Origin: Escherichia coli | GTDB lineage: Bacteria > Pseudomonadota > Gammaproteobacteria > Enterobacterales > Enterobacteriaceae | Reading direction: 5' to 3' (one strand) | DNA length: 64,000 nt | Assembly: GCF_003790525.1 (NCBI RefSeq) | Contig: NZ_CP033635.1 | Shown: piece by piece, positions 29,022 to 44,275 of the stretch | Position numbering within the stretch: position 1 is the first letter of the stretch | Layout: each line of letters opens with the position of its first letter | The notes under the pieces: model-generated | What the model saw: the letters and a program-made list of their open reading frames with translations, nothing else | What the model was told of the DNA's origin: nothing | Database searches by the model: none | Position numbers and translations under genes: made by a program

Positions 29022-30410
29022 ATGTCTGAACGCTATATTCCATGCTCCGTTGATGCAGAGCAGGCCGTGCTGGGCGGCCTGATGCTCGATAATGAACGCT
29101 GGGATGAGGTGGTACTGATGCTCCGGGGGGAGGATTTTTCTCTGGCCGCACACCGGGTGATATTCCGCACCATGTCAGAGCTGGCAACCAGCGGTCAGCC
29201 GTTCGACCTCATCACGCTGAGTGAGCATATTGAGAAAACAAACAATATTGAGGCACTGGGTGGTTTCGCTTATCTGGCTGAACTCAGCAAAAATACGCCT
29301 TCTGCAGCCAATATTATCGCTTATGCCCGTATTGTTGCTGAAAAGAGCATGCTGCGTCAGTTGCAGGAGACGGGGAATGCGCTGATTACGGATGTGGCCG
29401 CACCGGATGCGACACCACGCACTGTTCTTGAATCCGCTGAACGTCGGCTCTTTTCACTTTCACAGACTGGCATGTTGCATGAGCGATGTGAAGTCAGTCT
29501 CACCTCGGCTATGGAGCTGGCGCTGCGTCAACTGGAAGAGGGACTGAACGCCGGCGGGATGACGGGCACGCCCACGGGATTTGATGAACTGGATGAGATG
29601 ACCTGTGGTCTGCAGCCCGGCGACCTCATTCTTCTGGCTGCACGCCCGTCTATGGGGAAAACAGCGCTGGGCCTTACCTTCTGTCTTAATGCCCTGTGTA
29701 ACCGGACCGATGAAACGGTATTTCTTTTCAGTATCGAAATGTCCCGGGAGCAGCTGATTCTGCGTGTCCTGTCAATGCTCTCCAGGGTGGAGCTGACACG
29801 TCTTCGCAGCAGCATGATGGATGATGAAGAGTGGGCGAGAGTCACGGCAACCATGGGACGCTTCATGAATGAAGCGTCATTCATCGGAGATGGAAACCGC
29901 CTGATAATTGATGACACCTCCTTCCAGACGCCGTCATCGCTGCGTGCCAGCGCCCGTCGTTATGTCCGTCTGTATGGCAGACCTTCCCTGATAATGGTTG
30001 ATTACCTCCAGCTGATTCGTTCTCCGGACCAGGAGAACCGAACGCAGGAAATTGCGGAAATATCCCGCGCGCTTAAGGCGTTAGGTAAAGAGCTGGGATG
30101 CCCGGTACTGGCACTGTCTCAGCTTAACCGTCAGGTGGAGCAGCGGGCGGATAAACGCCCCAATAACGGTGACCTGCGTGATTCCGGGGCGCTGGAGCAG
30201 GATGCTGACCTCATTATGTTTATTTACCGTGACGAGGTTTATAACTCCGGCACGCTGGATAAGGGCGTTGCTGAAATCATTGTGAGCAAACAGCGGCAGG
30301 GACCAACCGGAACGATACGGGTGAACTTCGACGGCCGCTACACCCTGTTTTCACCGTTTGAACGTGGATGGAATTTTGACCGTGCCGGAGGAAATGCGTA
30401 TGTCAATTAA
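29022..30410 (+). CDS. dnaB: DnaB-like replicative DNA helicase
   Basis: DnaB N-terminal domain plus RecA-like core (Walker A ARPSMGKTAL); start set at ATG 29022 with GGAGGTGG SD instead of the TTG at 29004. Confidence 0.85.
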   Translation: MSERYIPCSVDAEQAVLGGLMLDNERWDEVVLMLRGEDFSLAAHRVIFRTMSELATSGQPFDLITLSEHIEKTNNIEALGGFAYLAELSKNTPSAANIIAYARIVAEKSMLRQLQETGNALITDVAAPDATPRTVLESAERRLFSLSQTGMLHERCEVSLTSAMELALRQLEEGLNAGGMTGTPTGFDELDEMTCGLQPGDLILLAARPSMGKTALGLTFCLNALCNRTDETVFLFSIEMSREQLILRVLSMLSRVELTRLRSSMMDDEEWARVTATMGRFMNEASFIGDGNRLIIDDTSFQTPSSLRASARRYVRLYGRPSLIMVDYLQLIRSPDQENRTQEIAEISRALKALGKELGCPVLALSQLNRQVEQRADKRPNNGDLRDSGALEQDADLIMFIYRDEVYNSGTLDKGVAEIIVSKQRQGPTGTIRVNFDGRYTLFSPFERGWNFDRAGGNAYVN

Positions 30411-32049
30411 ACGAAATCATTCCGTTGATCTGGGGGCTGCCATCATGCAACCGGGCCGTCAGGCCAGCACGGCAGGTAACGTGGTGGCGCTGGGGGAAAC
30501 ACCGATGATTCTGACGCTGGATCAACTGCGCCCCAACCCGGATAACCCGAGGACCACGCGTAATCCACGGTACGACGATATTAAAAGTTCAATTTTCTCC
30601 CGTGGACTGGATACGGTGCCCAAAGTCACCCGGATACCTGAGAGTGAGCCGGATATCTATATTTTCAGCGATGGCGGTAACACGCGATATCAGATCCTGA
30701 AAGAGCTGTGGGAAGAGACCGGTGATCAGCGTTTCTACCGTATTCATGTGCTTTTCAAGCCATGGCCGGGACGGCTTCAGTGCGTCATTGGTCACCTGGC
30801 GGAGAATGAAGTCAGGGGCGAACTGACGTTTATTGAAAAGGCCCGGGGTATCCATAAAGCACGGATGATTTATGAAGAGCAGTTAAGCAAAAGTGTGTCC
30901 ATGCGAGAGTTGTCATCCCTTTTGACTGAGCAGGGATTACCGGTGGATGCATCCAGTATCAGCCGTATGGAGAACACCCTGAAATACCTGTATCCGTGGA
31001 TCCCCGAACTTCTGGAATCAGGAATGGGGAGTCCTCAGGTCAGGGCTTTACTGTCTCTCCGGCAGGATGCGGAACGTATCTGGGGACAGTTTGCGGTGGC
31101 AACAGAGAACGGGGGGGATTTTGACCGCGTGTTTGGTGAATGCTGCAGCAAATTCAATTCACCGGAGCTCTGGTCACTGGAGATGTTCCGGGATGAGCTG
31201 ATTGGTGATCTGCTGAAAGCGTTACCACATCCGGTGCTGGATTATGACCGCTGGCTGCTTGAACTGGATCCGCGGGAACGTAACCGACGTCATCATTTTG
31301 GTGAACCTGAACCGGTGCTCATTCCCGCAGACAGTGATGCGATGCCAGAGCCTGTGACTCACGGTACGTCGGCAGTGACGGTGGAGAAGGACAGCGGAAG
31401 GGAGCAGTCTGTGATTTCCGCACCGGCTGACCATGACACAGTCATGAATACGGAGCAATCCCCTGTTGGAAAGGCGGAGAGTTCAGTTACTGAACAACGC
31501 GAAGAACGCCGCAGAAAGGAAGTCCAGCCGGATATGTATGGTGGTGAAGAAACATACAGCGGCGATTACGAAGAGGATGGCGATACCCGTGATGCTGCGG
31601 ATCTGCCGGTAACGTCACCGGAAGAGGGTGCTCAGCAGAGCATCGGTGAAATTTTCAGTGAGCCGGAATTCAGTGTTGGTGAACTGGATGATATCGAATA
31701 TCTGCAGAATGAGGCATTTCACCTGGCATGGGAGCTGGCGTCACACACAGGCTGTGTCGATGAACTGGCTATGGACAGGGAAAGCGAACTGTCTGCGGGA
31801 TTCGGCGCGGCAGAGGCGAATTGTTCTCCGGTCATGGCATTTCTTGTCAGGCTGACCGGTGAGGAGGTTCTGCGGGTTAATCCGGTTTCTCTTGATGCAC
31901 TGATGATTGGTGGCAGTACTGAAGAAGAGCCACCACTGCTGGATGATGAGCATGCCGGGAAGTTACTCCGTCTGCTTGGGGTGTTGCGTCGTCTGCGGGG
32001 GCTGCAGCGCCAGGTGGAAGAAGAGAACGTGGAGGGGCGTGATGAATAA
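30400..32049 (+). CDS. parB: ParB-like nuclease-domain protein with long acidic C-terminal region
   Basis: ParB/Srx-like motif IFSDGGNTRY near N-terminus; start overlaps dnaB stop; alternative ATG at 30394. Confidence 0.7.
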   Translation: MSIKRNHSVDLGAAIMQPGRQASTAGNVVALGETPMILTLDQLRPNPDNPRTTRNPRYDDIKSSIFSRGLDTVPKVTRIPESEPDIYIFSDGGNTRYQILKELWEETGDQRFYRIHVLFKPWPGRLQCVIGHLAENEVRGELTFIEKARGIHKARMIYEEQLSKSVSMRELSSLLTEQGLPVDASSISRMENTLKYLYPWIPELLESGMGSPQVRALLSLRQDAERIWGQFAVATENGGDFDRVFGECCSKFNSPELWSLEMFRDELIGDLLKALPHPVLDYDRWLLELDPRERNRRHHFGEPEPVLIPADSDAMPEPVTHGTSAVTVEKDSGREQSVISAPADHDTVMNTEQSPVGKAESSVTEQREERRRKEVQPDMYGGEETYSGDYEEDGDTRDAADLPVTSPEEGAQQSIGEIFSEPEFSVGELDDIEYLQNEAFHLAWELASHTGCVDELAMDRESELSAGFGAAEANCSPVMAFLVRLTGEEVLRVNPVSLDALMIGGSTEEEPPLLDDEHAGKLLRLLGVLRRLRGLQRQVEEENVEGRDE

Positions 32050-32773
32050 TGATGCAGCACGTCAGGAGCAACTGATTAAACGGATAAGAAAACTGCTGGC
32101 GCTGAGCCGGAATAACAGTAATCCCCATGAGGCAGGTCAGGCTCTTTCCCGCGCACAGGCGCTGATGCGGAAGCATGGTATCACCGAACTGGATGCTGAT
32201 ATTTCGGTGATAAAAACCTCATCATCAAAGGGAGCACCGTCAGAAGCGGAAAAAGTTCCGGTATGGATGGGGCGTCTTATGAATGTTGTTGCAGGGGCAT
32301 TCGGATGCCATACATACCTGGATTGGCGTATCACAACCGGAGGATACTGGCGGCGGATTGTCACATTTTATGGTTTTGGGGAGCGTCCGGTTGTGGCTGC
32401 GTATGCCTTTGATGTTCTCTGCCGGCAGATGCAAAAGGCGACAAAAGAGTATCTCTCAACCCAGAGCCGGAAATTAAAACACTCAACCCGTCGTGCAAGA
32501 GCTGCGATGTTTCGTGACGGCTGGGTTTATGGGGTGCGTGATGTGGTGGATGCATTCCGGCTCACGGAAGATGAGACGCGTGTAATGAATACGTGGCTGC
32601 AGAACCAGCAATTTGAGGGAATGGTCGTCTTCCGGGAGGTAAAGGACTGCCATGGCGGTGACCATGCACGCTGGCAGGGATACAACGAGGGGAAAAAGGC
32701 AACGCTGAATCACGGTGTTGGTTCCCGGGATCTGAGACCGGAAAGCCTGATATCAGGCGGAGGTGAGGTATGA
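32042..32773 (+). CDS. conserved ICE hypothetical protein
   Basis: Start at ATG 32042 (MNNDAARQ) overlapping parB stop; the longer track ORF from 31907 is an upstream read-through. Confidence 0.6.
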   Translation: MNNDAARQEQLIKRIRKLLALSRNNSNPHEAGQALSRAQALMRKHGITELDADISVIKTSSSKGAPSEAEKVPVWMGRLMNVVAGAFGCHTYLDWRITTGGYWRRIVTFYGFGERPVVAAYAFDVLCRQMQKATKEYLSTQSRKLKHSTRRARAAMFRDGWVYGVRDVVDAFRLTEDETRVMNTWLQNQQFEGMVVFREVKDCHGGDHARWQGYNEGKKATLNHGVGSRDLRPESLISGGGEV

Positions 32774-33348
32774 GTAATAACTTGTCACAGGCCACCAACG
32801 GACTGTTGATGCAGCTGGTGATGGATCTCAAAAGTGGCTATCTGCGCCGCTGTGAAGCGCTGGGGCTTTCCCGGGAAGAAATGCAGATGCTGCAGGGGCT
32901 GAGTATTGAGGAAATTCACTATCTGTCAAATTCAGAGGTGTCAGTGCTGCGGCTGGATATTAACCACAATAACCTTGTACGCATGCTGCAGCAGGCCAGG
33001 ACTGAACAGAAACGCCTGCAGCGAATCGATCGCGCTCTTGCACTGGGGGGATCGATTGAACTCATGGCGTTTTATTTTGGCCTTTCCAGTGTGGACGTTG
33101 CAGCACGGCGCCGTATTTCAGGAATTGATGTGCGCCCGGGGCGGGGTATCACACTCAGCGATGATGAAAACTCTGAACTCTGGAGACTGTGGCAGAAAGC
33201 AGGGATTAACGATGTGGAGAGCGCTGACGGGCTGGACGTCATGATGCTCTGTGCAGAGCAGATGAATATCCCGCTCACGGCCGTCTGGCATGCTGTCAGG
33301 GGGTGGCATACAGCCGGAAGCCCTGAACAGGTAAGGAATGCGTCATGA
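32770..33348 (+). CDS. conserved ICE hypothetical protein
   Basis: 192 aa; ATGA start/stop overlap with neighbours. Confidence 0.55.
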   Translation: MSNNLSQATNGLLMQLVMDLKSGYLRRCEALGLSREEMQMLQGLSIEEIHYLSNSEVSVLRLDINHNNLVRMLQQARTEQKRLQRIDRALALGGSIELMAFYFGLSSVDVAARRRISGIDVRPGRGITLSDDENSELWRLWQKAGINDVESADGLDVMMLCAEQMNIPLTAVWHAVRGWHTAGSPEQVRNAS

Positions 33349-40228: not shown

Positions 40229-42247
40229 ATGCGTCTCTTTTTGTGTGAGAAACCTTCACAGGCCGGTGATATAGCCAGAGTACTTGGGGCTGCCAGACGT
40301 GTTGATGGTGCGATTGAAGGTAAGGACTTTGTTGTGACCTGGGCCTTTGGTCACTTGCTGGAGCAGGCGCCACCGGAGGCGTATGGTGAGCAGTTTGGCA
40401 GTCCCTGGAAAATTGACGTTTTGCCGGTCTTTCCTGAACAGTGGCAGATGGTGGTGAAGGATAATGTCGGGAAGCAGTTTAATGTGATCAGCCGCCTTCT
40501 CCGTAAGGCTGATGAAGTGGTGATTGCCACTGACGCCGATCGTGAAGGCGAAATTATCGCAAGGGAACTGCTGGATTATTGTGGTTATACCGGCGTTGTG
40601 CGCCGTCTCTGGCTGTCCGCACTGGATGAGAGCAGTATCAGGGAGGCGCTGGGCAGGATACTGCCCGGAGAGGAGACCGAGAAGTTATATGAAGCCGGTA
40701 AGGGACGCAGCCGGGCTGACTGGCTGACGGGGATCAACCTGACGCGTCTGTATACCCTGAAAGCCAGGGAGTGTGGTGTGTCCGGCGTCCTCTCTGTTGG
40801 CAGGGTGCAGACGCCCACGCTTGCGATGGTGGTCAGACGGGATGCAGAAATCAAAAATTTTATTCCGGTACCTTACTGGCAACTGTATCTCTGGCTGGAG
40901 AAGGACAATGTGCGTTTTCGTACCTCCTGGATTGCGGCAGCGCAGTACTGCGATACTGAAAAACGGTGTGTGAATGTGCAGGCGGCAACAGCCGTCCTGT
41001 CACAGTGTCGTCAGGCCGGTGTTGCTGTTGTCAGGGATGTCAGCAGCAGACGGGAGAAAAAGCAGCCTCCGCTGTGTTTTTCGCTCGGAACGCTGCAGGA
41101 GGTCTGTTCGCGCAAATTTGGCCTCGGCGCGCAGGCCGTTCTTGATATAGCCCAGTCGCTGTACGAAAAGCATAAGGCGACAACATATCCGCGTACAGAT
41201 TGCGGTTATCTGCCTGTGTCGATGTACAAAGAAGTGCCTGACGTACTGGCAGCGCTGGAAAAAACCGATCCGGATATTGCCCCGGAGCTGGCAAAACTCA
41301 GTCCTGATATTGTGTCGGGGATCTGGAACGACAGGAAGATCACCGCGCATCATGCGATAATCCCCACCCGTCAGCCGTTTAATATTGGGGCGCTGAGTGA
41401 TAATGAGCTTAAGGTGTACCGGTTAATTCGTCAGCATTATCTGGCTCAGTTTTTACCCGTTCAGGAGCTGGATGTCACAGAGGCCACTTTTCTTGTTGCG
41501 GGGCAGTTGTTTGGAACGCGGGGGCGAGTGGAGGTTGTCAGGGGATGGCGTGCGCTTTTTGTGTCAGATTCGGCGGGAGAGGAAGAGGATGTTGCAGACG
41601 ATGAGCAGGCGATGCCCCTTCCCGTACTGGCAAAAGGCGATGAATGTCGTCCTGCTGAAGCTGAACTCAAAGAGATGCAGACCACGCCACCGCGTCATTA
41701 TACGGAAGGCACGCTGATTGCGGCGATGAAAAACGCTGCGGGGATGGTGAGTGATCCGGCACTGAAAAAAGTGTTACGCGAAAATGCGGGGCTGGGCACT
41801 GAAGCGACCCGCGCAGAAATACTGGAAACGTTGTTCACCCGCAAATATATCGAGAAGCAGGGTAAGCATATCCGTGCCACGCAACTGGGGGCGGAGCTGA
41901 TAGCGGGATTGCCGGAGGCGCTGACCAGTCCGGGGACAACGGCGCTGTGGGAACAGGCTCTGGATGATATTGCACAGGGTAAACTGTCACTGTCGTCATT
42001 TATGGAAAAGCAGAAACAGTGGCTTAACCACCTGGTGGCCGGTGCAAGGCAGCAGCAACTGCAGATCACGGCACCGGTTACGCCGGCATGCCCTCTTTGT
42101 GGGAGCAGAATGCGGAAAGTGAAGATGAAAAGCGGGAAAGGGGAATTCTGGAGCTGCCAGCGTTATCCGGAGTGTAAGGGAGTGATTTCAGAGCAGAAAC
42201 CGACATCCGGGAAACGGGGCGGCAGAAAAATTAAAAAGCATGGATGA
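40229..42247 (+). CDS. topB: DNA topoisomerase III
   Basis: 672 aa; Toprim N-terminus (MRLFLCEKPSQAGDIARVLG...ATDADREGE), C-terminal zinc ribbon CPLCG...C..C. Confidence 0.85.
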   Translation: MRLFLCEKPSQAGDIARVLGAARRVDGAIEGKDFVVTWAFGHLLEQAPPEAYGEQFGSPWKIDVLPVFPEQWQMVVKDNVGKQFNVISRLLRKADEVVIATDADREGEIIARELLDYCGYTGVVRRLWLSALDESSIREALGRILPGEETEKLYEAGKGRSRADWLTGINLTRLYTLKARECGVSGVLSVGRVQTPTLAMVVRRDAEIKNFIPVPYWQLYLWLEKDNVRFRTSWIAAAQYCDTEKRCVNVQAATAVLSQCRQAGVAVVRDVSSRREKKQPPLCFSLGTLQEVCSRKFGLGAQAVLDIAQSLYEKHKATTYPRTDCGYLPVSMYKEVPDVLAALEKTDPDIAPELAKLSPDIVSGIWNDRKITAHHAIIPTRQPFNIGALSDNELKVYRLIRQHYLAQFLPVQELDVTEATFLVAGQLFGTRGRVEVVRGWRALFVSDSAGEEEDVADDEQAMPLPVLAKGDECRPAEAELKEMQTTPPRHYTEGTLIAAMKNAAGMVSDPALKKVLRENAGLGTEATRAEILETLFTRKYIEKQGKHIRATQLGAELIAGLPEALTSPGTTALWEQALDDIAQGKLSLSSFMEKQKQWLNHLVAGARQQQLQITAPVTPACPLCGSRMRKVKMKSGKGEFWSCQRYPECKGVISEQKPTSGKRGGRKIKKHG

Positions 42248-42471
42248 TGATTACATGCTTTTTTTTATTTGTTAAAGTACATACGCTTTGATGTATACCC
42301 CCGTTATCAGCGGGAAACAGAGTGGCGATTAAACAACGGCGTTGCTCTGTTTCTGATACAGCAACGACCACTGCGTCCGGTTGTGTTGCAAGGCGCACGA
42401 ACTCCGTGAAAACCGCGTCGGGAGTGATCCCCGGAGAAAAGTGAGATAACCTCAGGGCTGGTAACCCGTGA

Positions 42472-42501
42472 CGGCGCTGAATTTTCAGCGCCGTTTTTTA
42501 T
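42472..42501 (+). terminator. rho-independent terminator
   Basis: Stem CGGCGCTGA/TCAGCGCCG followed by TTTTTTATT. Confidence 0.7.
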
Positions 42502-42559
42502 TGGTGTTTTCTGCTTGACTTTATTTATGGCTGTTTTAAAAATGAGCATGCTAAATAGC

Positions 42560-42725
42560 TGCTTTGCAGCCAACCAATCTCCCGGTGGTCTGAGAGGGAG
42601 GCTTACGCGACCACACTGTCATCTTCGGATGACCAGCCAATGTTCCAGCAGTCTGAGAGGAGCGCCTTCGGGTGACTGCCAGCCAATGTTTCAGCGATCT
42701 GAGAGAAACGCCTTCGGGTGATTGC
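42560..42725 (+). repeat. three imperfect direct repeats (~45-60 bp) each ending in a UUCG-tetraloop hairpin
   Basis: Units contain CAGCCAA...TCTGAGAG...(CATC TTCG GATG or CGCC TTCG GGTG). Confidence 0.6.
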
Positions 42726-42937
42726 AATATCCTCGTAGCCTGAAAGGGGATGCCTTTATGGCGGTACATCCGTTTAGCCTCTGGGAACGGATATCACCAC
42801 TGGTGATTGAGGTACGTTTAACTGCACAGACAGCCGGAAATTCAGCTGATTCCGGCATCCCCGACGGGAACTATCACTCCCGTCAGGGCTGGTGATGTTC
42901 TCCGTCATATCTTTTTTTACTCCATGGAGAAATCATC

Positions 42938-43402
42938 ATGTCTGCAACTAACTCTACTTCTGCAAAAACTGAATACTTCAACCTGACCATGAAAGGTCTT
43001 GGGTATCTCAGCAATGTACGTCAGGTTAACCATCAGAACGGTTCGTTCCTCAGCTGCGTGATTAACGCACTGAGTGGACCAACGGACAATCCGTCCTATA
43101 CGCGTTTTGATGTCACGGTTGCCGGTAAAGAGGCGACCACCCTGATCTCCCGCTGCCAGAAAGCAGTGGATGAGGACCGCAAGGTACTGCTTGGTTTTAC
43201 GTTAAGCAACCTTGCCACCGACATTTTCACCCTGAACAAGGGGGAGCATGCCGGTGAGCAACGCGTCAGCCTGAAAGCCCGCCTGATCAAGGTGGACTGG
43301 ATAAAAATAGGCCAGGAGCAGGTCTATAAGGCTGAAAAAGCGGAGTCCCAGCCACCGAGCCATGGCACCACAAAACGTGAATACGCAGAAGACTCCTTCT
43401 GA
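42938..43402 (+). CDS. conserved ICE hypothetical protein
   Basis: 154 aa; GGAGAAA SD; followed by hairpin terminator (~43410-43470). Confidence 0.6.
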   Translation: MSATNSTSAKTEYFNLTMKGLGYLSNVRQVNHQNGSFLSCVINALSGPTDNPSYTRFDVTVAGKEATTLISRCQKAVDEDRKVLLGFTLSNLATDIFTLNKGEHAGEQRVSLKARLIKVDWIKIGQEQVYKAEKAESQPPSHGTTKREYAEDSF

Positions 43403-43501
43403 TCGCGTATTTTTCTCACTGCCTCCCTGATAAAGAAAACAGACCACCATCAGGGAGGTCTGTTTTCTTATTGTTTTTACTGAACTTTAAGGAAACAAAT
43501 T

Positions 43502-43705
43502 ATGACTTCTACAAACGGTATTCTCGCAGCTGCGGCAGGTTATACATTACCTCTGGAAATACTCAAAAGTGGGCGCGGATATTATATTGGCACTCAGTGT
43601 TCTGAAGGACCGGTATCCCGTGAATCAGAAGAGTATTTCAAAAAATATGAGCAGGCTGAGCGGGCGCTGAAAAATGGCACCTGGACACAACGTCATGCCT
43701 GGTAA
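43502..43705 (+). CDS. small hypothetical protein
   Basis: 67 aa; AAGGAAA SD 8 nt upstream. Confidence 0.5.
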   Translation: MTSTNGILAAAAGYTLPLEILKSGRGYYIGTQCSEGPVSRESEEYFKKYEQAERALKNGTWTQRHAW

Positions 43706-43717
43706 TGAGGAGGTGCT

Positions 43718-44275
43718 ATGGCTTCACGCGGCGTAAACAAAGTTATCCTGATAGGACATCTGGGGCAGGATCCGGATATCCGGTATTTCCCCAATGGCGG
43801 TGGCGCTGTGGCGAATCTGTCACTGGCGACCAGCGACACCTGGCGGGATAAACAGAGCGGTGAAATGAAGGAAGTTACTGAATGGCACCGCGTTGTTCTC
43901 TATGGAAAACTGGCTGAAGTTGCCGGCGAGTACCTGCATAAGGGGTCGCAGGTGTATATAGAAGGCCAGCTTAAAACCCGTAAATGGTTTGACCAGCAGA
44001 ATGGTGTGGACCGTTATTCAACTGAGGTTGTTGTGGGCGTGAATGGTGTCATGCAGATGCTGGGTTCATCGCGTCAGCAGGGCGCTTCCGGTAATGGTGC
44101 TTCAGCACTGGCACAAGGGGGCCAGGGACATCCGCCGAAGACGACCGGACAGACTGGTCGTGCCACCCGGACGACGTCAACGGGTAATGGTGCTCCACCA
44201 ATGGACTTTGACGATGATATCCCCTTTATGGGGCTCGGGTATGGCATGGAACGACGAATTATTCATGCCATGTAA
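43718..44275 (+). CDS. ssb: single-stranded DNA-binding protein
   Basis: 185 aa; OB-fold N-terminus, Gly/Gln-rich linker, acidic tail ending DFDDDIPF. Confidence 0.9.

Follow-up and report, generated by a model that had tools for sequence, protein, structure and literature searches.

In the 64,000-nt stretch of Escherichia coli DNA analysed here (contig NZ_CP033635.1; hereafter, the window), the topoisomerase III gene topB (40229-42247, stop codon at 42245-42247) is separated by a gap of ~680 bp (42248-42937) from a gene of the STY4534/DUF3577 family (42938-43402); these features, like all those located in the window below, lie on the + strand. The downstream gene encodes a 154-aa "ICE replication protein" (NCBIfam NF040584, 197.9 bits; Pfam PF12101), where ICE stands for integrative conjugative element, and a 67-aa open reading frame (ORF) lies between it and a canonical ssb gene (43718-44275; TIGR00621). 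The original prediction, made from the sequence alone, had described the gap as having no convincing ORF and as rich in RNA-like structure, suggestive of a small RNA or of a structured regulatory leader. The mechanical ORFs of the gap indeed do not exceed 88 aa, and our analysis shows that the region is composed of two RNA elements belonging to two transcription units, with a terminator between them. The upstream one, which we call element X, is a self-contained structured RNA (42270-42500) with a conserved, covarying intrinsic terminator, in keeping with the small-RNA reading; the downstream one contains the repeats noted in the prediction, which belong to the Rfam family STAXI and are placed behind a conserved promoter and before a conserved helix that sequesters the Shine-Dalgarno (SD) sequence, in keeping with the leader reading. 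The features that had been listed were confirmed, at the positions given or only a few bases away, and their interpretation is supported, each reading for a separate element, while the pseudoknots, the named family and the division into two units by a terminator had gone unrecognised.

Identity and architecture of the STAXI array

The Rfam family STAXI (RF01728) matched positions 42617-42770 over its full model (positions 1-153 of 153), with 139.2 bits against a gathering threshold of 40.5 and E = 1.7e-31. When first described, in 2010, STAXI was a pseudoknot that recurs two or three times and has genes for Ssb, topoisomerases, antirestriction proteins and XerDC integrases as neighbours; its discoverers did not decide between action as RNA and action as single-stranded DNA (ssDNA), favoured RNA for its UUCG loops, which stabilise RNA and not DNA, and judged that it is not a riboswitch (PMC2864571). 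The array of the window has the tandem pseudoknots, the UUCG loops, the Enterobacterales background and the ssb and topoisomerase neighbours of the published family, to which the ICE SGI4, discussed below, adds ArdC and a Xer-like recombinase, so that score, repeated units, loops and gene neighbourhood all place it within STAXI. It differs from the published description in having five units, a terminal pseudoknot and, as argued below, the position of a promoter-driven leader ending in an SD-sequestering switch. In our literature search few papers mentioned STAXI as an RNA and one mentioned EFASI, an RNA that accompanies it, and none gave a function, a promoter or an expression platform.

A canonical unit consists of CCAAU, the 5-nt 5′ strand of the pseudoknot helix (PK5), one spacer base, the 6-nt 5′ arm of stem S1, UGAGA, the 5-nt 3′ strand of the pseudoknot helix (PK3), a GCC-UUCG-GGU hairpin and the 3′ arm of S1 (S1′). 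The pairing of PK5 with PK3 makes it an H-type pseudoknot, in which CCAA and UGA-A are invariant and unpaired. The window contains five H-type pseudoknot units, where the Rfam model has one hairpin and three units. The start of the predicted leader is marked by a 5′-proximal hairpin, GCUGC-UUU-GCAGC (42558-42570; from sequence and fold), and other arrays open with an analogous one, UGUCGC-UUNN-GCGACA. It is followed by unit 0 (42574-42614), which has a UUAC loop, scores 31.4 bits with the unit model R1 described below and is identical in plasmid NZ_CP059920.1, and by a simple UUCG hairpin, GUCAUC-UUCG-GAUGAC (42617-42634; Rfam model positions 1-17; -7.3 kcal/mol). Unit 0 and this hairpin represent an insertion that 90% of the related loci do not have (a column block with 90% gaps). 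Units 1 (42637-42679; R1 70 bits; PK5 GUUCC, PK3 GGAGC) and 2 (42683-42725; R1 67.4 bits; PK5 GUUUC, PK3 GAAAC) are both canonical, the former with every part of the layout given above, and from one to the other the two strands of the pseudoknot helix have changed in ways that compensate each other. Unit 3 (42726-42767; PK5 AUCCUC, PK3 GGGGAU, pairing read from the sequence) is of a "CUGAAAG" type and, at positions ~110-153, is the last unit within the Rfam model.

Beyond the end of the model we identified a large terminal pseudoknot (42768-42814), formed by PK5 AUCCGUU, S1 UAGCCUC, PK3 AACGGAU, an inner hairpin AUCACC-ACU-GGUGAU and S1′ GAGGUA. A structural parse recovered the full set of six pseudoknot pairs in 29 of the 33 distinct leaders, compared with 13% of shuffled sequences; the pairing is kept by sequences as different as AUCUGC/GCAGAU, CCGUUU/AAACGG and UCUGCU/AGCAGA. 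BLAST matches in other replicons likewise reach 42818 and not just 42770. The Rfam STAXI model is thus incomplete, since it does not contain a terminal pseudoknot that is conserved in ICE leaders. As for the three imperfect direct repeats of the original prediction, 46-nt copies were recovered at 42570-42615 (61% identical to the reference copy), 42633-42678 (the reference) and 42679-42724 (87%), together with UUCG hairpins at 42618-42633, 42660-42669 and 42706-42715; in the first repeat the loop is UUAC, and the UUCG hairpin that goes with it forms a stem-loop of its own immediately downstream.

For comparison we collected 76 genomic loci that encode a relative of DUF3577, every one of them from Enterobacterales, together with four ICEs whose records are those of plasmids; 64 distinct upstream regions were used for the promoter and 67 distinct leaders for the expression platform. 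R1 is a 43-nt covariance model of 31 canonical units in which only the nested stems are represented and the pseudoknot helix is left out. Searched against the window and 85 fetched loci (86 sources), it returned 127 unit matches; the seed units had been picked for pairing and the seed is therefore biased, while the matches were not selected on the pseudoknot. In the window and the 76 ICE loci all R1 matches are on the strand of the downstream gene. Among the 89 distinct units, 96.8% of the cells of the pseudoknot helix are paired and five of five pairs have changed on both sides (one of them, for example, is U-A 40, C-G 22 and A-U 14 times); for S1 the figure is 95.5%, and neither helix has a pair without compensatory changes. 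The whole unit structure has a covariation score of 0.577 against 0.270 for shuffled controls, reached by none of 500, and partners slid along the alignment are only 28-64% paired. G.U pairs occur throughout and one closes the inner hairpin (S2) in 68 of the 89 distinct units; on the other strand these would be C.A mismatches, which fixes the + strand. C(UUCG)G loops, present in 50 of the 89 and in the window at 42624-42627, 42663-42666 and 42709-42712, concur with the G.U closure in fixing the strand and in favouring RNA.

Folding energy contributes little to this picture. The nested minimum free energy (MFE) of the array alone is not significant (z = -0.47 on the + strand, -1.52 on the - strand), which is uninformative because pseudoknots are not modelled, and for this reason covariation was relied on instead; folds of the whole region are significant (z ~ -4.5 and -4.2) and do not distinguish the strands. 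The case that the structure is beyond chance rests on comparison, namely the Rfam E-value and covariation. The original prediction had staked itself on conserved structure in homologs and on a transcript: the comparison run here revealed conserved, covarying structure, and published data provide the transcripts, since a strand-specific RNA-seq study of Pectobacterium atrosepticum lists a "STAXI sRNA, 3′ UTR: topB" (UTR, untranslated region; PMC4710047), and STAXI was detected by reverse transcription quantitative PCR (RT-qPCR) in vesicle preparations of E. coli, being among the most abundant small RNAs (sRNAs) there (PMC12370729).

Promoter, leader and Shine-Dalgarno switch

A promoter scan identified a sigma-70-type promoter, TTGACT-17 nt-AAAAAT, at 42515-42543. 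All 64 distinct upstream regions have TTGACN, 17 nt of variable sequence and AANNAT with constant spacing, and TTGAC, kept in at least 90% of them, forms together with the -10 the best-conserved bases outside the expression platform. In Xenorhabdus and Pantoea the distance from the topB stop codon to the promoter is only -4 to 15 nt, so that the two adjoin or overlap. From these elements transcription is expected to start near 42550. In the ICE loci the unit motifs are at a constant distance, ~200-300 nt upstream of the start codon, and related leaders measure 229-387 nt, the one of the window being ~390 nt, a range consistent with the gain and loss of ~46-nt units. A terminator scan of 42510-42938 found none between promoter and gene. 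With this promoter, STAXI becomes the 5′ part of a predicted ~390-nt leader of the STY4534/DUF3577-ssb mRNA.

The further stem-loops that had been noted ahead of the start codon were reproduced by folding at 42833-42856, 42859-42888 and 42890-42938. The first hairpin, P_a (42833-42856; -11.7 kcal/mol), has ~90% of its cells paired in the 67 leaders, with four of six pairs changed on both sides. The second, P_b (42859-42888; CCC-C-GACGGGA ... UCCCGUC-A-GGG), is present in every leader examined, with 92.9% of cells paired, four compensatory pairs and a mean duplex energy of -19.2 kcal/mol against -7.0 for shuffled sequences. In the third, the anti-SD strand UGGUGAUGUUCUCCGU (42890-42905) pairs in the MFE structure with 42924-42938; the loop between them (42906-42923) contains a U-run (42912-42918) and ACUCC, the U-rich tract being partly conserved (0.6-0.9 identity), and the SD strand AUGGAGAAAUCAUC, followed by the AUG at 42938-42940 (together 42924-42940), is sequestered in the default fold, where a helix of 15 bp takes up the SD with its spacer and also the first base of the AUG.

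The sequestering helix is conserved as a structure. Its core UUCUCC/GGAGAA is 96.3% paired in the 67 leaders, and the mean anti-SD:SD energy is -15.6 kcal/mol (range -10.2 to -21.7, in 67 of 67 leaders) against -6.2 for shuffled sequences, while an unrelated control pair gave a mean of -6.4 against -5.0 kcal/mol. The lengths of the arms covary as well, with GAUGUUUUCUCC pairing with GGAGAAAACAUC, GAUGUUUCUC with GAGAAACAUC and GAUGUGUUCUCC with GGAGAUAACACAUC, and a matched change of arm length is seen, for example, in locus L060 (GAUGUGU and ACACAUC). The motif pair TTCTCCGT...TGGAGA occurs once in the window of 64 kb against 0.01 expected. In an alternative helix the anti-SD strand pairs instead with the 5′ arm and loop of P_b (42863-42877), and this pairing too is conserved (94.8% paired, five compensatory pairs; mean of -16.8 kcal/mol against -6.6 for shuffled sequences). 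The two states are mutually exclusive: the closed one, with P_b and anti-SD:SD, amounts to ~ -35 kcal/mol and the open one, with the alternative helix and the SD free, to ~ -17 kcal/mol. A promoter, no terminator before the gene, a covarying SD helix and an exclusive alternative structure are thus all found at this locus, as in leaders that act by SD sequestration. Separately, a 10-bp palindrome, CTCCATGGAG, overlaps the SD at 42917-42932 and is kept in most leaders as ACCTCCATGGAGAA; its loop would be too short for a hairpin, and it could be an RNA dimerisation or a DNA site.

We also considered whether parts of the leader are translated. In the identical sequence of E. coli AR_0089, RefSeq annotates a 45-aa "hypothetical protein" corresponding to 42758-42895. 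This ORF falls within covarying RNA structure, sharing its sequence with the terminal pseudoknot, with P_a and P_b and with the anti-SD strand, and its annotation is probably spurious; leader lengths that differ by non-multiples of three (229-387 nt) are incompatible with a conserved reading frame. A conserved upstream ORF that would open the SD hairpin on termination was rejected: the ORF of the window at 42722-42895 ends in the anti-SD arm, and its start and stop codons are not kept in the 67 leaders. Units 1 and 2 could be read as MFQ(Q/R)SER(S/N)AFG, but the substitutions are the compensating changes of the pseudoknot and many units have no AUG, so that a coding function of the repeats was discarded.

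Three arrays, each on the strand of the genes, are found in the complete ICE SGI4 (NZ_CP061046.1); one of them precedes STY4534-ssb. A second one (4525-5140), equipped with the P_a/P_b/anti-SD platform, precedes an unannotated 112-aa ORF with its ATG at 4802, after which come hypothetical genes, ardC, DUF1281 and a methylase gene; at the 112-aa ORF the record annotates instead a 49-aa ORF on the opposite strand. Array 1 of SGI4 has no platform; downstream of it come a spacer that is conserved, the EFASI RNA (RF02957) and a gene for a Xer-like recombinase. The reverse situation occurs at 5180-5280 of SGI4, where a P_b-like hairpin is followed by a GGGGAUAAAUCCCC hairpin with an arm complementary to the SD region GAGGAUUUAUCC of a gene at 5278, and the same switch logic is thus found there without a STAXI array. 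In a Xenorhabdus innexi locus (L079) two arrays (2050-2140 and 3174-3264) lie ~1.1 kb apart on the same strand.

Outside the ICEs, about 580 of the 5,426 complete E. coli genomes carry the sequence of 42631-42818 at ~96% identity; these include copies in the ter/ure islands of O157:H7 that have nothing annotated adjacent and are flanked by insertion sequence (IS) elements. The array is also found on small plasmids. Positions 42570-42818 are 100% identical to 2862-3110 of the 3,140-bp plasmid NZ_CP059920.1, which implies a recent exchange of the module between ICE and plasmid; the only substantial gene of this plasmid encodes a Rep_1 rolling-circle initiator (PF01446, E = 4e-89), to which the array and, after it, EFASI (2261-2383) are both antisense. 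Three ColE1-like plasmids of Rahnella and Pantoea carry STAXI and EFASI opposite to the direction of RNAII, as inferred from RNAI matches, and in an IncK2/Z plasmid the STAXI copy is truncated by an IS. EFASI is the known companion of STAXI and was located 320-530 nt downstream on the same strand in five small plasmids and at array 1 of SGI4; by contrast, it is absent from the window in the Rfam scan, and here the P_a/P_b/anti-SD platform follows the array instead.

Element X and the surrounding integrative conjugative element

Element X is a structured RNA of ~230 nt (42270-42500) with a long-range closing helix, internal hairpins and an intrinsic terminator at its end. It is found in 21 of the 64 ICE loci as an insert of 270-400 nt between topB and the promoter. 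On the alignment of these copies (A5), RNAalifold predicted 22 pairs, 13 of them with compensatory changes; 91.7% of cells are paired against 25-44% with slid partners and the covariation score is 0.491 against 0.278 for shuffled controls (none of 500), figures that lean in favour of the structure, as it was derived from the same alignment. The closing helix is GUAC/GUAC in eleven sequences and GCAC/GUGC in nine, and a 9-bp helix has compensatory changes at seven pairs. The most conserved part of the alignment (at least 70% identity) is a core at 42403-42436 with a CUCCG...CGGAG helix, an asymmetric loop UGAAAACCGCGUC and a GGGA/UCCC hairpin; core helix 4 is 94.3% paired. The long hairpin reported in the original prediction at 42314-42353 proved to be a variable arm of element X outside the RNAalifold consensus, with a 14-bp stem, GAAACAGAGUGGCG/CGUUGCUCUGUUUC, of -20.1 kcal/mol (z = -3.7); by eye, one other locus (L013) has a 14-bp stem of different sequence at the equivalent place of the alignment.

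The strong terminator of the prediction also holds (42470-42500): a G+C-rich stem of 11 bp (42470-42495) is followed by a T-run, with -19.9 kcal/mol and z = -4.95, and the terminator scan agrees with the fold. The sequence of the stem differs by locus, and a hairpin followed by a T-run is kept in 21 of 21. This terminator is predicted to end both element X and read-through from topB, and to insulate the STAXI promoter. An A+U-rich hairpin with a T8 run lies over the topB stop codon (42226-42275; inverted repeat with arms 42226-42242/42254-42270, 82% complementary) and could possibly be a weak topB terminator. No Rfam match was found over 42248-42470 in a cmscan of 41500-43800 with permissive filters and E<=1, and by eye the conserved 5′ part of element X has no convincing sigma-70 or sigma-54 promoter. 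Element X would either represent the 3′ UTR of topB or be transcribed from its own promoter, and the "3′ UTR: topB, 228 nt" transcript of Pectobacterium (PMC4710047) may be its counterpart. A pairing between element X and the switch was rejected: the perfect complementarity of 10 nt between 42419-42428, in the core hairpin, and 42873-42882, in the loop and 3′ arm of P_b, is not conserved, and in 21 loci the duplex energies equal those of shuffled controls, which points to chance. An 11-nt direct repeat, TCAGGGCTGGT, at 42452 and 42883 is likewise not conserved in other loci.

The 690 bases of the gap are 100% identical in E. coli AR_0089 (NZ_CP032265.1), whose record outside the gap differs from the window by ~180 nt. 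There the locus belongs to an ICE of the Salmonella pathogenicity island 7 (SPI-7) type beside a tRNA-Ser gene, in the order ParA, DnaB-PI, ParB, DUF2786, DUF2857, STY4528, PFL_4669, topB, gap, STY4534, small ORF and ssb, followed by pilL, traD and type IV secretion genes, the whole run of genes being on one strand. In the window NCBIfam matches STY4534, ssb, PFL_4669 and STY4528, and ~20 kb of + strand transfer genes follow the gap. According to the annotation of the near-identical record, ~30358-33348 of the window encodes ParB-family and DUF2857 proteins, the families of the ICEclc master activators BisD and BisC. Elsewhere in the window Rfam matched isrN, an Hfq-binding island sRNA (17137-17279, 123.7 bits), and a JUMPstart element (4256-4294, 53.6 bits).

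Candidate mechanism and rival explanations

The protein encoded behind the leader was examined at the level of structure. A sequence search found no relative of DUF3577 in the PDB, and a first model, from an alignment of 16 sequences, had a predicted local distance difference test (pLDDT) score of 58 and gave nothing significant in a fold search. It was superseded by an AlphaFold2 model based on 78 diverse homologs (mean pLDDT 89; topology beta1-3, alpha, beta4-5), for which the 50 best PDB matches in Foldseek were almost exclusively bacterial, mitochondrial or organellar single-stranded DNA-binding proteins (SSBs); E-values start at 1.7e-4, the probability is 1.0 and TM-scores are 0.3-0.66. 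On this model, DUF3577 is predicted to be an SSB-like protein with an oligonucleotide/oligosaccharide-binding (OB) fold. Its gene occupies the position beside ssb that inrR has in ICEclc, where inrR adjoins ssb (gene order in PMC2892462). InrR is required for the transfer-competence promoters of ICEclc (PMC7423338, PMC9286271) and "is unlikely to be a direct transcription activator" (PMC7423338).

The reading that we favour, as somewhat better than an even bet, is that of a cis-acting leader which controls translation and in which the pseudoknots serve as a platform for a binding factor. The promoter at 42515-42543, just past the terminator of element X, would start the DUF3577-ssb mRNA, and by default the gene would be transcribed but kept translationally closed by the anti-SD:SD helix, until the anti-SD strand swaps to the 5′ half of P_b and frees the ribosome-binding site. 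The tandem pseudoknots with their invariant unpaired CCAA and UGA-A could form a multi-site platform for a trans-acting factor that sets the activity or the stability of the leader, and the supply of ssDNA-handling "establishment" proteins would in this way be tied to the state of the element. Of this scheme, the identity of the family, its strand, the pseudoknot fold, the conserved promoter, the sequestered SD and the alternative helix are shown by the data, and the start of transcription, a binding factor with its identity and a coupling of array and switch are proposed.

As for the factor, the obvious candidates, by analogy with gene 32 of phage T4, would be the SSB-like proteins encoded downstream. 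The T4 gene 32 protein, which binds ssDNA, autogenously controls its own mRNA through a pseudoknot in the leader. In both systems a gene encoding an SSB-type protein has a 5′ leader with pseudoknotted RNA, and they share, plausibly here, the logic by which free ssDNA-binding protein reports the ssDNA load. They differ in that T4 has one pseudoknot and an unstructured A/U-rich tract, whereas three to five pseudoknots and stable hairpins are found here, and in that leaders of the STAXI type also precede genes not coding for SSBs. In the repZ/repY leader of IncI plasmids (Rfam PK-repZ) a pseudoknot forms with the SD region, and its opening needs translation of a leader peptide. That leader also belongs to a plasmid replication gene, sequesters the SD and uses a pseudoknot in translational control; here, however, there is no conserved upstream ORF, and the pseudoknots are self-contained and far upstream.

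Several observations weigh against the translational-control leader. Communication between the array and the switch is hypothetical, as is the binding factor. The stretch between pseudoknots and SD is structured by folding and not single-stranded as in T4 gene 32. The closed state is far more stable, so that the default is closed and opening requires an input. Arrays without a platform exist on small plasmids, in the O157 islands and as array 1 of SGI4, and these, together with the platform that lacks an array, indicate that the two are separable modules, which weakens the claim that the array is the sensor of the switch. Finally, the shuffle controls used for the covariation scores ignore phylogeny.

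The arrays outside the ICEs also speak for the main rival, an action in trans, in which the array, cut from the leader or separately transcribed as a stable sRNA, would work as a protein sponge or decoy and the gene downstream would be incidental. This explanation is somewhat unlikely. In its favour, arrays occur with no regulated gene adjacent (the 3.1-kb rolling-circle plasmid, the ColE1-like plasmids, the O157 ter/ure islands, ~580 E. coli genomes), promoter-like sequences are also found ahead of them, Rfam classes the family as sRNA, STAXI is among the most abundant small RNAs of vesicles (PMC12370729), and repeated units with invariant loop bases suit multivalent binding. Against it, in the 76 ICE loci the array always precedes one and the same gene with a fixed spacing, shares its strand and is joined to a covarying SD platform, scan and fold find no terminator following the array of the window, no processing site is known, and several of the stand-alone copies are flanked or truncated by IS elements and may be remnants. 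As tandem structured RNA units that could bind several protein copies, STAXI arrays do resemble ToxI arrays and the CsrB/RsmZ sponges. CsrB, however, shows GGA in hairpin loops, whereas the GGA-like runs of STAXI are paired inside the pseudoknot; with UUCG in the unit loops, GGAGC and GAAAC paired and no GGA in unit 2, a CsrB/RsmZ-type sponge was discarded. The likeness to ToxI would extend to function if the array were the RNA antitoxin of the downstream protein in a type III toxin-antitoxin system such as ToxIN, and in favour of this, tandem pseudoknot repeats do stand immediately before the gene of a small protein on mobile DNA. This explanation is nevertheless close to refuted: the repeats of ToxI are near-identical and paired with an endoribonuclease gene, whereas STAXI units are diverged (61-87% identical) and ordered in their architecture, no terminator separates array and gene, PADLOC gave no match, the arrays precede several unrelated genes, and the Foldseek search with the model indicates an SSB-like OB fold and not a protein of the ToxN/AbiQ type.

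The array might also act in cis on transcription elongation, the nascent RNA protecting the leader from Rho or making the polymerase resistant to terminators like the put RNA of phage HK022; arrays placed directly behind promoters that head long co-oriented runs of genes (~20 kb of transfer genes here), three of them in the one ICE SGI4, would suit such a module, and the U-run after the alternative helix could terminate. Since this U-run lies 5-7 nt past the stem, it would be a poor intrinsic terminator, no likeness of the array in sequence or structure to known antitermination RNAs was found, with none among the Rfam matches, and arrays on 3-kb plasmids would go unexplained, which makes an elongation module quite improbable. 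Alternatively, each pseudoknot could be a ligand aptamer of a tandem riboswitch, with P_b and the anti-SD as expression platform. The layout of aptamer and platform with mutually exclusive helices and the compact H-type units with invariant unpaired bases are compatible with this, but the number of units varies freely (leaders of 229-387 nt), arrays exist without an expression platform, the genes concerned handle DNA and are not metabolic or transport genes, and the discoverers of STAXI judged otherwise (PMC2864571); we regard a riboswitch as highly improbable. No higher chance is given to the alternative raised by the discoverers, that the motif works as ssDNA, as a priming site, single-strand origin or ssDNA promoter in conjugation or rolling-circle replication. 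Its association with ssb, topoisomerase, ArdC and replication genes and its presence on Rep_1 rolling-circle and ColE1-like plasmids, which pass through ssDNA stages, are in its favour. The trinucleotide CTG, the start site of DnaG, is moreover found in each unit. The Frpo and ssi elements in the leading regions of F- and I-type plasmids fold in the template DNA strand that is transferred, and they stand in for a duplex promoter. Like STAXI, they are structured, occur two or three times per element and lie upstream of the ssb and anti-restriction genes of conjugative DNA. STAXI, however, folds in the sense strand, has tetraloops of the RNA type and an ordinary duplex promoter ahead. This conserved double-strand sigma-70-type promoter directly upstream, the fusion of the array to an SD-sequestering helix that is meaningful only in RNA, the enrichment of C(UUCG)G, which stabilises RNA and not DNA (PMC2864571), and the detection of transcripts (PMC4710047, PMC12370729) all speak for RNA. 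On the small plasmids, too, the array is antisense to rep (Rep_1 plasmid) or opposite to RNAII (three ColE1-like plasmids), so that the fold-competent strand is inferred not to be the displaced or lagging-template one; a single-strand origin on the Rep_1 plasmid was rejected on this orientation, and an ssi-, sso- or Frpo-like element was not recognised at the locus, a result that is not absolute since the transferred strand of the ICE is not established.

Returning to the translational-control leader, a bolder version of it, distinctly unlikely as a whole, is that one factor, plausibly DUF3577 itself, reads the arrays that precede ssb-like, anti-restriction and recombinase gene sets as a post-transcriptional regulon of SPI-7/ICEclc-type elements, opening or closing the P_b/anti-SD switch according to the amount of ssDNA, so that establishment proteins would be made only during transfer or replication, with element X as an additional, hitherto undescribed RNA class feeding the same locus. 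If DUF3577 were the reader of the array, this might shed light on InrR, whose regulatory role in ICEclc is unexplained, the likeness being that of the gene position beside ssb.

What is new in these results is the leader status of STAXI, the extra pseudoknot and the terminal one, an SD switch that covaries and has an alternative helix, the layout of three arrays in one ICE, the SSB-like fold predicted for DUF3577, and element X, which lies beside STAXI as another conserved structured RNA and matches no Rfam family. STAXI ranges over hundreds of E. coli genomes, including the O157:H7 islands, as well as ICEs for metal and drug resistance and small plasmids, and the genes found under it code for proteins of ssDNA binding, anti-restriction and recombination, the first that an incoming element requires. 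Its placement, in ICEs, at the head of a promoter-driven leader with a covarying SD-sequestering switch turns an orphan motif into a testable regulatory device.

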